Shown piece after piece: positions 8,367 to 30,525 of a stretch of DNA of 64,000 bases. The notes beneath the pieces were generated by a model. That model made no database searches. It saw nothing but the letters and a program-made list of their open reading frames with translations, and was not told the origin of the DNA. How positions within the stretch are numbered: position 1 is the first letter of the stretch; every line of letters begins with the position of its first letter. The position numbers and the translations under genes were made by a program. This DNA comes from Escherichia phage EPIMRB01: the sequence record PQ657784. One strand, 5' to 3'.

Positions 8367-8837
8367 TTAATCATGTGTCCACACCCCATCGGTATTTGAC
8401 CAAAGTCGCTGATTATCTGATCCTCGCCACAGCTTTTTAGTCGGAAGATTTTTCTCATACTTCCCATCAATAATAACATCAACATATTTAAGCATTTCTA
8501 GTTGTTTAATATCTTCAAACTTATATCCTGTCCACAACCAAATGCTTTTATTGGGATAAAGATTTTTTACTGTTTGAACGATGCAATGAATAACATCTCG
8601 GTTATCAGGATAGAGAGGGTCACCTCCGGTTATAGTCAATCCTTCTATATAATCATTATTCAAACATTCAATCAATTGTTCTAGCGTTTCACCAGTGAAT
8701 GGAATACCATTTCTAGCATTCCATGTTGATTTATTATAACACCCTTCACATTTATGCAAACAACCTGTAACGAAAAGAACGACCCTGCAACCAGGGCCAT
8801 TCACAAAATCACAAGGATAAAATCTATCATAATTCAT
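8367..8837 (-). CDS. nrdG: Anaerobic ribonucleotide reductase activating protein (radical SAM)
   Basis: 156 aa; CxxxCxxC motif (CLHKCEGC); directly downstream of nrdD. Confidence 0.9.
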   Translation of the reverse strand: MNYDRFYPCDFVNGPGCRVVLFVTGCLHKCEGCYNKSTWNARNGIPFTGETLEQLIECLNNDYIEGLTITGGDPLYPDNRDVIHCIVQTVKNLYPNKSIWLWTGYKFEDIKQLEMLKYVDVIIDGKYEKNLPTKKLWRGSDNQRLWSNTDGVWTHD

Positions 8838-10651
8838 TGATGCTTAACCCTATGCATGATTTCTTTATTTTTACCGAGATTAAATCCGCGTTCGTTCGGA
8901 TTTCCCAAATAACCACATGTTCTTCTTATTGTGTTCATCTTTTTAGGATCAGTTTCTCCACAAATAGAACAAACAAATCCGTTTTCAGTAGGAGTCATTT
9001 CATGGGTACTTCCACATGTAAAACATTTATCTACTGGCATATTAACACCAAAATAATCTAAATGTTGTGCAGCATAATCCCATACGGCCTCAAGACCCTT
9101 TAAGTTATTTTTCATATCAGGAAGTTCAACATAAGAAATGTGGCCGCCTGTCGCAATGAAATGATATGGTGCTTCGCGAGAAATCTTTTCAAACGGAGTA
9201 ATATTTTCTTCTACTGAAACATGGAAACTGTTAGTGTACCAACCTTTATCGGTAACATCCTTTACACTTCCATATTTTTCGGTATCAAGTTTACAGAAGC
9301 GATAACAAAGGTTTTCAGCAGGAGTAGAATACAAACTAAAAGCAAACCCAGTTCTTTCAGTCCACTGTTTAAGACGAGCATTCATTTTAGTTAAAATTTC
9401 CTGTCCAATATCACGACCGACAAGAATATTCAATTCGTGAATACCAATGTATCCTAGAGACACTGAACTTCTGCCATTTTTAAATAACTCAATTATATCG
9501 TCATCAGGTTTAAGACGAACCCCGAATGCACCTTCTTGGTAAAGAATAGGAGCAACAGTCGCTTTAACTCCTTTTAAGGAACTAATTCTACACATCAAAG
9601 CTTCAAAACATAAATCCATTCGCTCATTGAACAATTCAACAAATTTCTGTTCATTGAATTGTGTTCCAATATAAGAATCTAACGCGATACGAGGAAGATT
9701 CAGTGTTACAACACCGAGATTATTACGTCCATCAAGAATTTCATTGCCAGTCGAATCTTTCCATACGCTCAAGAAACTACGACAACCCATTGGAGAAACA
9801 GGAATAGATGAGCCGGTGATAGCTTTATTGTTCTTAGCCGAAATGATGTCAGGATACATTCTTTTGCTTGCGCACTCTAGAGCAAGCTGTTTAATATCAT
9901 AGTTCGGATCGTCTTTATAAAGATTAACACCTTCTTCAACGAACATAACAAGTTTAGGGAAAATAGGAGTTATCCCATCACGACCAAGACCTTTAATACG
10001 ATTTTTCAGAATTGCTTTCTGAATCATTCGTTCAGTCCAGTCAGTTCCCGTACCAAATGTAATTGTTACAAAAGGCGTTTGTCCGTTTGAACTAAAGAGA
10101 GTATTTACTTCATATTCATAAGCTTGGAATGCATCGTATACATCTTTTTCTGTTTTAGATTGAGCATAATTCAACGCATCAGCGATTTGCCATTTTTCTG
10201 CATCCTCAATATGTTTTGCATAGGTGCGTTTAACATAAGGAGAAAGTACTTTATCTACATTAGCAAAAGTCGTTCCGCCGTATTGATGGGAAGCAACCTG
10301 TGCAGTAATTTGTGCCATAATTGCAGTAGCAACTCCAATTGATTTAGGAGTTTCAATCTGTGCATTACCTAGCTTAAATCCGTTCTCAAGCATTCCTTTT
10401 AAATCTACTAAACAACAATTAGTAAATGGAAGAGCAGGGGAATAATCAATATCATGGAAATGAATAATTCCGCTTTCATGCGCTTTCATAATAAAAGACG
10501 GGACCATATTTTTGGCAATGTGTTTAGACACAATACCAGCCATAAGGTCCCGTTGAGTTGGAAAAACACGAGAATCTTTATTAGCATTCTCGTTTAAAAG
10601 GTCTTTATTAGTTTTATGAATCAATCCTTCAATTTCTTTTTCAATTGTCAT
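8834..10651 (-). CDS. nrdD: Anaerobic ribonucleoside-triphosphate reductase, uninterrupted reading frame
   Basis: 605 aa; C-terminal glycyl-radical motif RRTCGYLG and Cys cluster CFTCGS...CSICG. Confidence 0.92.
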   Translation of the reverse strand: MTIEKEIEGLIHKTNKDLLNENANKDSRVFPTQRDLMAGIVSKHIAKNMVPSFIMKAHESGIIHFHDIDYSPALPFTNCCLVDLKGMLENGFKLGNAQIETPKSIGVATAIMAQITAQVASHQYGGTTFANVDKVLSPYVKRTYAKHIEDAEKWQIADALNYAQSKTEKDVYDAFQAYEYEVNTLFSSNGQTPFVTITFGTGTDWTERMIQKAILKNRIKGLGRDGITPIFPKLVMFVEEGVNLYKDDPNYDIKQLALECASKRMYPDIISAKNNKAITGSSIPVSPMGCRSFLSVWKDSTGNEILDGRNNLGVVTLNLPRIALDSYIGTQFNEQKFVELFNERMDLCFEALMCRISSLKGVKATVAPILYQEGAFGVRLKPDDDIIELFKNGRSSVSLGYIGIHELNILVGRDIGQEILTKMNARLKQWTERTGFAFSLYSTPAENLCYRFCKLDTEKYGSVKDVTDKGWYTNSFHVSVEENITPFEKISREAPYHFIATGGHISYVELPDMKNNLKGLEAVWDYAAQHLDYFGVNMPVDKCFTCGSTHEMTPTENGFVCSICGETDPKKMNTIRRTCGYLGNPNERGFNLGKNKEIMHRVKHQ

Positions 10652-27925: not shown

Positions 27926-28198
27926 TTTAAATCTAGTCAATTTATTCATAGACTTTGAAACTTCTGCACGAACCTCATGTAGATTTTTGAGCTGTTCAAG
28001 ACGCTGCGTATAGTAAGCAATTTCATCTTCTTCGAGACAGTCCTGTGAATCTTCTTTAAGATAACGTGCATAGTCCTGAAAAGCGTTACGAACTACTTCC
28101 TGGAAATCATCAAGACTTTGAATTTTCTTAGGAGCAGCAGATACACGACGAGGGGCAGTATAATACTCATAACCAAACCCTGCGCTTAATTGAGCCAT
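27920..28198 (-). CDS. Hypothetical protein, about 92 aa
   Basis: ORF trimmed to the Met giving an ATGA junction with the upstream gene. Confidence 0.45.
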
Positions 28199-28464
28199 TA
28201 GTATTTTTCCTCTGGTTGGAACACTGCACGACAAGCCCACATACTGGCTTCTTTGAGTTTCGTTTTAGCAATAGTTAACTGATCGAGGCTTTCAGCATAA
28301 TTCTTCGCGAGTTCATCGTCTTCACAGCTATCAAATGCTTCCCAAAATTCATCGTATAAAGCATCAAAGATAAGTCCTAAACGAACTTCAGCGTCTTTGA
28401 TAGCATTCACTTTACCGATTTTCTCTTCGGTATGCGGCTTATAACCCTTAATATCTTCAATCAT
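28198..28464 (-). CDS. Hypothetical protein, about 88 aa
   Basis: ORF trimmed to the Met with a GAGGAAG RBS. Confidence 0.45.
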
Positions 28465-28678
28465 ATTTGACTTCCTCACCAGTACATAAATCATATTCAA
28501 CTAAACGAATAGGTTCATGAATGCCATATCCCTGAACAGAAATTTCTGTCGTAGGATAAATTCCATCAATATCACCCATATTCCAGGCTTCATTAAATTG
28601 CTGTTCGCCTGAATTACTAAACCACTCGGCGAAAGCATTTAGCACATCTTCAGAACCTTCAATAATTATCTTTGCCAT
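28457..28678 (-). CDS. Hypothetical protein, 73 aa
   Basis: ORF. Confidence 0.45.
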   Translation of the reverse strand: MAKIIIEGSEDVLNAFAEWFSNSGEQQFNEAWNMGDIDGIYPTTEISVQGYGIHEPIRLVEYDLCTGEEVKYD

Positions 28679-29040
28679 TACAAACTCTCGGTGAAGGTAC
28701 GAGCGATAACGTCGCGCTGCTGTTCCGGAGTCAGAGAGTTAAAGCGAACTGCATAACCTGATACACGGATGGTCAGCTGCGGATATTTTTCCGGATGCTT
28801 AACTGCATCTTCCAGAGTTTCACGACGCAGAACGTTAACGTTCAGGTGTTGACCACCTTCAATTTTAACTGTAGGTTGTGTTTCAATTTCAATTTCACGG
28901 GCATGCAAACCGTAGAAAATTTCCGGGTCTACAAAAGAGTCCTCTTTAAAGGTTTTAGAGACAATAATTCGTGCTTGAATACCATCTTCAAAATAAATAG
29001 TACCTTTATGTGTGCCTTCAAGAATTTGATATGCTTTCAT
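28678..29040 (-). CDS. Autonomous glycyl-radical cofactor-like protein (GrcA/YfiD-like)
   Basis: 120 aa; C-terminal glycyl-radical motif RVSGYAVRF as in GrcA and the C-termini of PFL/NrdD. Confidence 0.75.
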
Positions 29041-29047
29041 ATAAACC

Positions 29048-29377
29048 TCAATTAGAAAATAAATTTATCCAAGATTGTTCTTTAATTAAAAATGGCTCAG
29101 AATCATATGCCATTAAACTTTGGGTGATTAGTCCTTTAAAAGGTCCATCAATAAATTCCATGGTAAAATATGGAATTTTATTCATTAACTGTGCGTTAGG
29201 AGCAGTGCACAAAACTCTGCATCCTTTGAATACACCCTTTTGTAATTTGTATTGCTTGGGATAAAATTCGCTCAAAATGTTATTATTTGCTAAAATTTCA
29301 AAATGATTCACCAATTTATTTTTAATAGTTTTTGGTGAAAAATAAAGATATTCGAAAAGCTGTGTGTCTGTCATCAT
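29048..29377 (-). CDS. Hypothetical protein, 109 aa
   Basis: ORF. Confidence 0.45.
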
Positions 29378-29973
29378 TGCATTCCAATCACAAAAAATTG
29401 AGGACGAACTGTTTCACCTGTTTCAGCATTATAGCTTCGACAACAGTGTTGTACCGTTTTAATATGGATATTGTAAATCTTATCCATATCAGGAGCTTTA
29501 ATAGGTTCGTCAATTATGTACAAGATACGAGAAAGCGATAACCCACGGAATTTATGACCTTCATTACCGATAAAACTACGGACAGAATCAGTAAATAAAC
29601 GGAATCGAATATCATCGCTAGAATAACGAGAAAATTCTTTTTCAATGTTGCCAGCAGAAATTTTAGCGTAAGCTGAAGTATTAGAAAGAACAATAACTGT
29701 TCCGCCATCATACAGCCAATTAGCGGCAAAGTTAGTCACAGCAATTGATTTACCGGATTGACGTCCACCATCTATACGAAGTGTGCAGTACTGTTTGAGC
29801 ACATCTTCCATTGGTGGAAGATAATCATTCTTACAGAGTTCTTCTACTCTAGCATCAGAATGGTGTGTAAAAGCATTCATCAGGGATAGATACGGGCCAG
29901 TTAAAAATGTTCTCATATTTTCTCTCTTAATTTTTGGGCCATTCCATGGCACATGAGTTGTCCATTCCTGCAT
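29374..29973 (-). CDS. Small P-loop NTPase with terminase-ATPase-like Walker motifs, 199 aa
   Basis: Walker A GGRQSGKS (compare gp17 SRQLGKT in this window) and Walker B ILYIIDE. Confidence 0.55.
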   Translation of the reverse strand: MQEWTTHVPWNGPKIKRENMRTFLTGPYLSLMNAFTHHSDARVEELCKNDYLPPMEDVLKQYCTLRIDGGRQSGKSIAVTNFAANWLYDGGTVIVLSNTSAYAKISAGNIEKEFSRYSSDDIRFRLFTDSVRSFIGNEGHKFRGLSLSRILYIIDEPIKAPDMDKIYNIHIKTVQHCCRSYNAETGETVRPQFFVIGMQ

Positions 29974-30051
29974 TACCCATTACCGCACTCAGGCTCGACC
30001 TTATCACAGGTTGGCGGGAATACCTCAAATGAGGTCCAGGTTGTTCCCATA

Positions 30052-30525
30052 TTATTTGAACGATTTAACGTACTGAATAGAACCTTTACTATTTACAAAG
30101 GCAATTTTACCATTTTTATTATACATTGTAGCAGTACGTTGATAGCCATAAGTTTGTTTACCAGATTGATAACCAACTAATGCAAAATTATCTTCACCCA
30201 TTTTATTCTGTTTAGCGCGAATGCGTTCATGACCATGTGCCATAAGAACCTTAGCATCACCAGTTGCAATGGATCGACGAGTTTTTTCATCTTCAACTGT
30301 ATTAACAAAGTCGTCAAATGAATCAAATTTAGCATGAGATTTATTATACAATTTTCCATCTACTGCATAATTATATCCCTGTACATCCATCTCAACTTCT
30401 GTACCATCATCCAATACAGCAGTAATTTTCTGTCCTTTTTTAAATTTCAAAAGATCAGTAAAAGATTCAGCAATAATTTGAGAATTAATAGCTGCTTCAG
30501 TGATAAATTCTTGATATGTTTTCAT
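30052..30525 (-). CDS. Internal (capsid-packaged) protein with capsid-targeting sequence, 157 aa (IPII/IPIII position)
   Basis: N-terminus MKTYQEFITEAAINSQIIAE matches the T4 internal-protein targeting leader with protease-type cleavage after I-x-E. Confidence 0.7.
   Translation of the reverse strand: MKTYQEFITEAAINSQIIAESFTDLLKFKKGQKITAVLDDGTEVEMDVQGYNYAVDGKLYNKSHAKFDSFDDFVNTVEDEKTRRSIATGDAKVLMAHGHERIRAKQNKMGEDNFALVGYQSGKQTYGYQRTATMYNKNGKIAFVNSKGSIQYVKSFK

Follow-up and report, generated by a model that had tools for sequence, protein, structure and literature searches.

Analysis of the gene vs.6 of Escherichia phage EPIMRB01, which encodes a GrcA-like autonomous glycyl-radical cofactor, indicates that the gene is a mosaic, in which an old phage-specific N-terminal half and a phage-type 3' tail flank a recently replaced core of host type. 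Comparison with related phages and with enterobacterial grcA alleles suggests that this core is very probably overwritten recurrently by alleles of the hosts, i.e. by host-to-phage gene conversion that is bounded inside the gene. If so, T4-like phages swap a functional module of 165 nt with the host chromosome so frequently that otherwise identical isolates can be told apart by it. The analysis is based on a stretch of 64,000 nt of EPIMRB01 DNA (record PQ657784), subsequently designated the window, and coordinates given without a locus label of another sequence are positions within this window.

Spare-part proteins of this type have a biochemical precedent in both the host and T4. According to the work of Wagner et al. 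2001 (PMID 11444864), as far as it is related in PMC8683613 and in a 2026 review (PMC13450708), E. coli YfiD and T4 Y06I both serve as autonomous glycyl radical cofactors. As summarized in PMC8683613, the PFL-activating enzyme installs the radical on YfiD or Y06I, and the activated proteins form complexes with oxygen-cleaved pyruvate formate-lyase (PFL), which thereby regains activity. YfiD and Y06I are so far the sole two spare-part proteins validated biochemically (PMC8683613). Residues 1–60 of YfiD are disordered and matter for binding of cleaved PFL and for activation, while residues 61–127 are folded and resemble residues 693–759 of PflB (PMC8683613). The radical passes from G102 of GrcA to C419 of PflB (PMC12338860).

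In all likelihood, the EPIMRB01 gene corresponds to vs.6/Y06I of the T4-like coliphages (Tequatrovirus), that is, the phage form of the PFL-reviving spare part GrcA/YfiD. Over its full length the protein is identical to T4 vs.6/Y06I in 118 of 120 residues (98.3%), and the order of the surrounding genes is that of T4 (vs.8-vs.7-vs.6-vs.5-vs.4-vs.3-regB-vs.1-vs-tk.4). High identity and the position between vs.7 and vs.5/vs.4 place the gene in the orthologous group of T4 vs.6. The Pfam model Gly_radical (PF01228) scores 67.2 bits (E 2e-18), well above its cutoff of 22.2, and the best solved structure is E. coli GrcA (6owr, E 4.6e-42), followed by PflB (E 4.8e-26), whereas the remaining glycyl-radical enzyme structures reach about 3e-12 or weaker. 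The radical domain is thus of the PFL type and not of the type of other glycyl-radical enzymes. In a global alignment Gly95 of vs.6 corresponds to G102 of GrcA and to G734 of PflB. Residues 61–120 are identical to residues 68–127 of GrcA at all 60 positions, and 49 of 63 residues (78%) are shared with PflB 697–759. Therefore, the preliminary description, which took the gene for a GrcA/YfiD-like autonomous glycyl-radical cofactor, is borne out: the C-terminal motif it pointed to is present as RVSGYAV, and the conserved glycine, which it proposed to check by alignment, is in place. The C-terminal sequence of the protein reads as quoted there.

The N-terminal half is of the right length and can be aligned with the N-terminus of GrcA, but only 17 of the 49 aligned residues are identical. 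The top NCBIfam model is GrcA (TIGR04365, E 1.4e-45), which covers residues 20–120; the score of 154.6 bits stays below the trusted cutoff of 170 of this equivalog model because the N-terminal half has diverged. The protein was therefore filed as a phage Y06I-type spare part and not classed with chromosomal GrcA as an equivalog in the strict sense. By tblastn, matches were detected in 1,588 phage records spread over the Straboviridae and the T5-like Demerecviridae. The 2-kb neighborhood of vs.6 shows complete identity (100%) to Escherichia phage AUBRB02 and 96–98% identity to many Tequatrovirus coliphages. Other phages encode proteins 100% identical to EPIMRB01 vs.6 that GenBank lists as 'autonomous glycyl radical cofactor GrcA', and RefSeq likewise uses the name GrcA for these phage genes. 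Since Y06I has been characterized since 2001 and since identical phage proteins already carry this name, the gene assignment is correct but already known, and by itself brings nothing new.

The features of the gene are compiled in the table. Following an in-frame upstream stop, the first available start codon opens the ORF, which is intact and bounded by stop codons. It is thus no segment of a longer ORF, and the concern of the preliminary description that the motif might belong to a longer mis-called frame does not apply. With 120 aa and its own Shine-Dalgarno sequence, vs.6 encodes a small standalone protein, as is typical of spare parts, and not the C-terminus of a large enzyme; the protein contains no cysteine. 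The Shine-Dalgarno sequence overlaps the TGA stop codon of vs.7, and the stop codon of vs.6 overlaps the ATG of vs.5 in the sequence TAATG; these overlaps indicate translational coupling within a tightly packed cluster of co-directional genes. A scan for sigma-70 promoters and terminators around vs.6 yielded 12 sites, which is no excess over the 10.4 sites expected from shuffled sequence.

Table. Features of vs.6 and of the anaerobic ribonucleotide reductase genes in the 64,000-nt window of phage EPIMRB01.
Feature	Position	Strand	Remark
vs.6/Y06I ortholog, GrcA-like autonomous glycyl-radical cofactor	28678..29040 (including stop codon)	-	120 aa, 13.8 kDa
Start codon ATG of vs.6	29040..29038	-	
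Stop codon TAA of vs.6	28680..28678	-	
Codons 1–60, phage-type N-terminal half	28861..29040	-	AT-rich, diverged homolog of the GrcA N-terminus
Codons 61–115, putative host-derived core	28696..28860	-	165/165 nt identical to E. coli grcA
Codons 92–98, RVSGYAV glycyl-radical fingerprint	28747..28767	-	
Gly95 codon GGT	28756..28758	-	
Codons 116–120 and stop codon, phage-type tail	28678..28695	-	synonymous differences from E. coli grcA
Shine-Dalgarno sequence GAGG of vs.6	29046..29049	-	5 nt upstream of ATG; read from sequence
nrdG	8367..8837	-	phage activase gene, context
nrdD	8834..10651	-	phage anaerobic ribonucleotide reductase, context

By virtue of its near-identity, we infer for EPIMRB01 vs.6 the mechanism worked out for E. 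coli YfiD and T4 Y06I. Oxygen would strike active PFL and cut the chain at the radical glycine G734, leaving a dead enzyme. The C-terminal domain of the vs.6 protein, which would copy residues 693–759 of PflB (approximate borders), could dock into the cleaved PFL with the help of the N-terminal half, which by analogy with YfiD would bind the cleaved enzyme. The host radical-SAM activase PflA would then abstract a hydrogen atom from Gly95, the counterpart of GrcA G102, and the new glycyl radical would be handed on to C419/C418 of PflB, so that conversion of pyruvate and CoA to acetyl-CoA and formate is restored. NrdG is the sole ORF with a CxxxCxxC motif in the 64 kb, and given the domain identical to GrcA, activation of vs.6 would have to come from host PflA. 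As T4-type phages shut off host gene expression, the host would be unable to induce its own grcA, and a copy transcribed from the phage would sustain the fermentative supply of acetyl-CoA and ATP in the micro-oxic gut during infection. The presumable benefit is that PFL is kept running in oxygen-exposed infected cells in which host expression is shut off. The literature that could be searched yielded no in vivo phenotype of vs.6 in a phage.

The mosaic structure became evident from nucleotide comparisons. Searched by blastn against 5,426 complete E. coli genomes, vs.6 found matches with its 3' half only (97.3% identity), and these were always located in grcA. Codons 1–60 share merely 49% nucleotide identity with E. 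coli grcA and have a GC content of 0.33 (GC3 0.20). In contrast, codons 61–115, which correspond to GrcA residues 68–122 and thereby to the majority of the folded radical domain, are identical throughout (dS = 0) and have the composition of E. coli (GC 0.50, GC3 0.42). The exact run of identity extends over 169 nt (about 28694..28862). Immediately downstream, each of the five codons 116–120 (FTESL) carries a synonymous difference from E. coli grcA, and this stretch (GAG AGT ...) looks like the tails of other phages. Identity of the core drops to 98.8% with a cryptic Escherichia sp., to 92% with Citrobacter and to 82% with Salmonella, pointing to E. coli itself as the donor. Selection on the protein cannot explain identity at the level of DNA: in Cronobacter phage leB (L086, 301..663) the core protein is identical to that of E. 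coli GrcA, yet dS versus E. coli amounts to 1.38, indicating that synonymous sites are free to drift. The host gene is evenly diverged along its length between species and the tract in the phage has host-like composition, which argues for transfer from host to phage. For the N-terminal half, dN/dS between EPIMRB01 and Klebsiella phage KP179 is about 0.18, i.e. it is under purifying selection among phages and hence functional.

Two side observations concern these sequences. Saturated synonymous divergence combined with an identical protein, as seen in leB, reveals extreme constraint on the radical domain, independent of any recent transfer. The phage-type FTESL codons create the sequence GAGAG 9 nt upstream of the start codon of vs.5, directly after the 165 identical bases, and may have been retained as the ribosome-binding site of vs.5.

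The same patch is present in T4 and RB69, where it is 98.8% (163/165 nt) and 98.2% identical to E. coli grcA, respectively. All three phages share the 5' edge of the patch but differ at its 3' edge, which lies between codons 115 and 116 in EPIMRB01, 118 and 119 in T4, and 117 and 118 in RB69. EPIMRB01 and RB69 differ at 16 of 180 nt in the 5' half and at only 3 of 165 nt in the core (Fisher p 0.004). A tract that is 95–99% identical to the 3' half of E. coli grcA occurs in about 500 phage records.

The comparison was extended to Klebsiella phages. A metagenome pattern scan for LLDAVEH, a variant of Klebsiella/Salmonella type, returned contigs of two kinds. The many bacterial contigs have 55–57% GC, a host-type MITGIQ N-terminus and 91–96% identity to Klebsiella/Raoultella grcA; it is on these three features that they were called bacterial, since a partial EamB sequence from E. 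coli found no match in them by tblastn. Two phage contigs (L102 and L097) have 39.7% GC and carry homologs of vs.7, vs.5, vs.4 and regB. They were compared with the Jiaodavirus isolates KP179, KPV15, phiKp_22, pzk-kv6-1 and Ra_O-2, and the cores were anchored on the EGGQHLN codons. Host alleles in this comparison are metagenome contigs rather than named genomes, the 5' half of KPV15 was left out due to a frameshift in the record, and the 300 nt downstream of the L102 core gave a poor ungapped alignment, for which an indel is the presumable cause.

Within this set, the comparable 5' halves of vs.6 are 98–100% identical; the cores are 89–96% identical in most pairs and 98–99% identical in pairs with the same allele type. 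The clearest case is provided by pzk-kv6-1 and Ra_O-2, which show no difference in 480 flanking nucleotides but ten differences in the 165 nt of the core (Fisher p 1e-6). Likewise, the 5' part of phiKp_22 is 100% identical to that of contig L102, whereas the core is only 92% identical. The cores of KPV15 and L102 are 2–3 nt away from one host allele of Klebsiella/Raoultella type (L092), while those of phiKp_22 and L097 are 3–4 nt away from a different one (L093). The cores of KP179, pzk-kv6-1 and Ra_O-2 are at a distance of 7–11 nt from the nearest sampled host allele. At 95–99% identity, the L092-type core is found in 80 phage records and the L093 type in two. As the pattern is present in isolates, it is not explained by chimerism of metagenome assemblies. 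It is also visible in the proteins, which read LEDAVKH in E. coli phages as in E. coli and LLDAVEH in Klebsiella phages as in Klebsiella. In Slopekvirus (Matisse), Pseudotevenvirus (leB), Karamvirus (PG7), T5-like (Spc35) and Aeromonas phages, the cores are 67–85% identical to the sampled hosts and give no sign of recent conversion, which is either older or absent in these phages.

The vs.6 gene of PG7 ends three codons early. In KPV15 (L164, 322..683) the frameshift in the 5' half leads RefSeq to split vs.6 into two CDS, of which only the 3' piece is named GrcA; it represents either a sequencing error or a natural pseudogene. Salmonella phage Spc35 (L088, 1501..1869), a T5-like member of the Demerecviridae, and the T4-like Aeromonas phage 31 (L090, 1492..1860) carry their GrcA-like genes inside a tRNA gene cluster, and the cores of both are about 70–77% identical to any sampled host grcA. 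The host-type grcA contigs L110 and L162 have aberrant 3' ends (FTEACK... and FTQTM*), which may be contig-end artefacts or hybrids with tails of pflB/tdcE type.

Conversion presumably proceeds through homologous recombination with host DNA during infection. A previous report of host-phage conversion at vs.6/grcA was not found in the searchable literature, in which coverage of the T4 work is partial, and the phenomenon is probably unreported so far. Turnover of the core might be maintained adaptively, in that the spare part is kept matched to PflA and PflB of the current enterobacterial host, but we consider this tentative and rather doubtful. Alternatively, conversion could be a neutral by-product of T4-type hyper-recombination with fragments of host DNA, and such a process would be self-reinforcing because identity begets further recombination. 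Should the adaptive reading be true, it would represent an unreported enterobacterial counterpart of the mosaicism of cyanophage psbA. Under recurrent conversion, the vs.6 core would be a simple marker of recent host use that can be read from sequence, and the gene would provide a tractable system for measuring recombination from the host into a virulent phage and for asking whether an auxiliary metabolic gene of a phage must match the host allele.

The cyanophage genes psbA and psbD are reportedly host-derived metabolic genes with intragenic recombination between host and phage, as described by Zeidner in 2005 and Sullivan in 2006. Both they and vs.6 are phage copies of a damage-prone host component that exchange tracts with the host alleles. 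They differ in the protein, host group and phage family concerned. Unlike in psbA/psbD, the exchange at vs.6 affects a discrete core of 165 nt in an old phage gene and is visible among near-identical isolates.

T4 Y06I (NP_049730) agrees with EPIMRB01 vs.6 in length, in the slot between vs.7 and vs.5 and in mosaic structure, but differs by T54P and R73H; the EPIMRB01 protein retains the host residue Arg at position 73, and its core lacks the two nucleotide differences from E. coli grcA seen in T4. E. coli GrcA/YfiD (P68066) is likewise a small standalone protein with the shared radical glycine and presumably with the same activase PflA and the same target, cleaved PflB. In contrast to GrcA, vs.6 is seven residues shorter, has an AT-rich N-terminal half and resides in a phage gene cluster instead of the ung-grcA locus of the host. 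The C-terminal domain of PflB has the same RVSGYAV loop and C-terminal helix and is the part replaced by the spare part; PflB is an 85-kDa enzyme, whereas vs.6 is a free-standing 14-kDa protein without the barrel carrying the catalytic Cys418/419.

Repair of another target was also considered. The preliminary description placed the gene alongside nrdD and nrdG and named phage NrdD as a possible repair target besides host PFL. Both genes are indeed in the window, but at a distance of about 18 kb from vs.6 and thus not adjacent, so that the linkage was overstated. NrdD, a class III ribonucleotide reductase, is encoded by the same phage and has a glycyl-radical site that is cleaved by oxygen, and vs.6 could be its spare part, activated by phage NrdG. 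Such a role is in line with a speculation by Nolan et al. 2006 (PMC1524935) on a function in nucleotide metabolism; these authors counted vs.6 as one of the ORFs conserved across five T4-like genomes, with 6/6 orthologs matching Gly_radical. It is also in line with Aeromonas phage PX29, in which the vs.6 homolog has nrdG and nrdC/nrdH as its immediate neighbors on either side. However, the C-terminus of EPIMRB01 NrdD reads CFTCGS...CSICG...RRTCGYLG, i.e. a Cys4 Zn-ribbon followed by the radical site with its RxCGY motif, and vs.6 has neither the ribbon nor this motif nor detectable pairwise similarity to NrdD: BLASTP returned an E value of 2.6 with the radical site unaligned. The radical domain of vs.6 is instead that of GrcA and PflB, even the PX29 homolog is of the PFL type (...RVSGYAIRF...RTFTQSM), and the published biochemistry, as far as the sources cited above relate it, is rescue of PFL. 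Repair of NrdD is accordingly very unlikely, and this part of the preliminary description finds no support.

Even less credence is due to the idea that vs.6 acts as a decoy, which titrates host PflA or occupies PflB in order to shut down or redirect pyruvate metabolism of the host rather than to repair it. Mimics that inhibit host enzymes are common in phages, and the diverged N-terminal half could in principle alter partner binding. Yet T4 Y06I, whose N-terminal half differs at 1 of 60 residues, reconstitutes PFL in vitro (Wagner 2001, as cited in PMC8683613), and the radical glycine together with the complete docking domain is identical to the functional GrcA of the host, making a decoy extremely improbable. 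We also regard it as barely credible that vs.6 is a functionless fragment of host grcA, recently captured and merely hitch-hiking, in spite of the 165 nt identical to the host gene and their host-like GC content. The patch sits within a phage gene of greater age and is no free-standing fragment, the reading frame is undisrupted, is preceded by a Shine-Dalgarno sequence of its own and is translationally coupled to its neighbors, homologs recur in the phage families named above, and the N-terminal half, which is not of host origin, is under purifying selection. A spare part for PFL with a core of host type remains the preferred reading.

Further observations relate to gene neighborhoods. In PX29 (L089, 359..3947) the genes nrdD-nrdG-vs.6-nrdC-nrdH form an unbroken series, with an overlap between the end of nrdG and the vs.6 homolog; this is the only synteny seen that ties the spare-part gene to anaerobic ribonucleotide reductase genes. 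In EPIMRB01, the vs.4 homolog (28198..28500, minus strand), located two genes downstream of vs.6 in the same tightly packed cluster, matches the Pfam Acb2/Tad1 hairpin domain (E 1.2e-19), a family of anti-CBASS/anti-Thoeris nucleotide sponges. T4 (L002) carries vs.8-denV-ipII-ipIII between vs.7 and the lysozyme gene e. A tblastn search detected no homologs of denV and ipIII within the 64 kb of EPIMRB01. The corresponding region (29374..30525, minus strand) contains no more than a vs.8 homolog of reduced length (84% identity) as well as an internal-protein-like ORF of 157 aa (MKTYQEFITEA...), which is 31% identical to ipII. The tk.4 gene product of EPIMRB01 is only 58% identical to that of T4.
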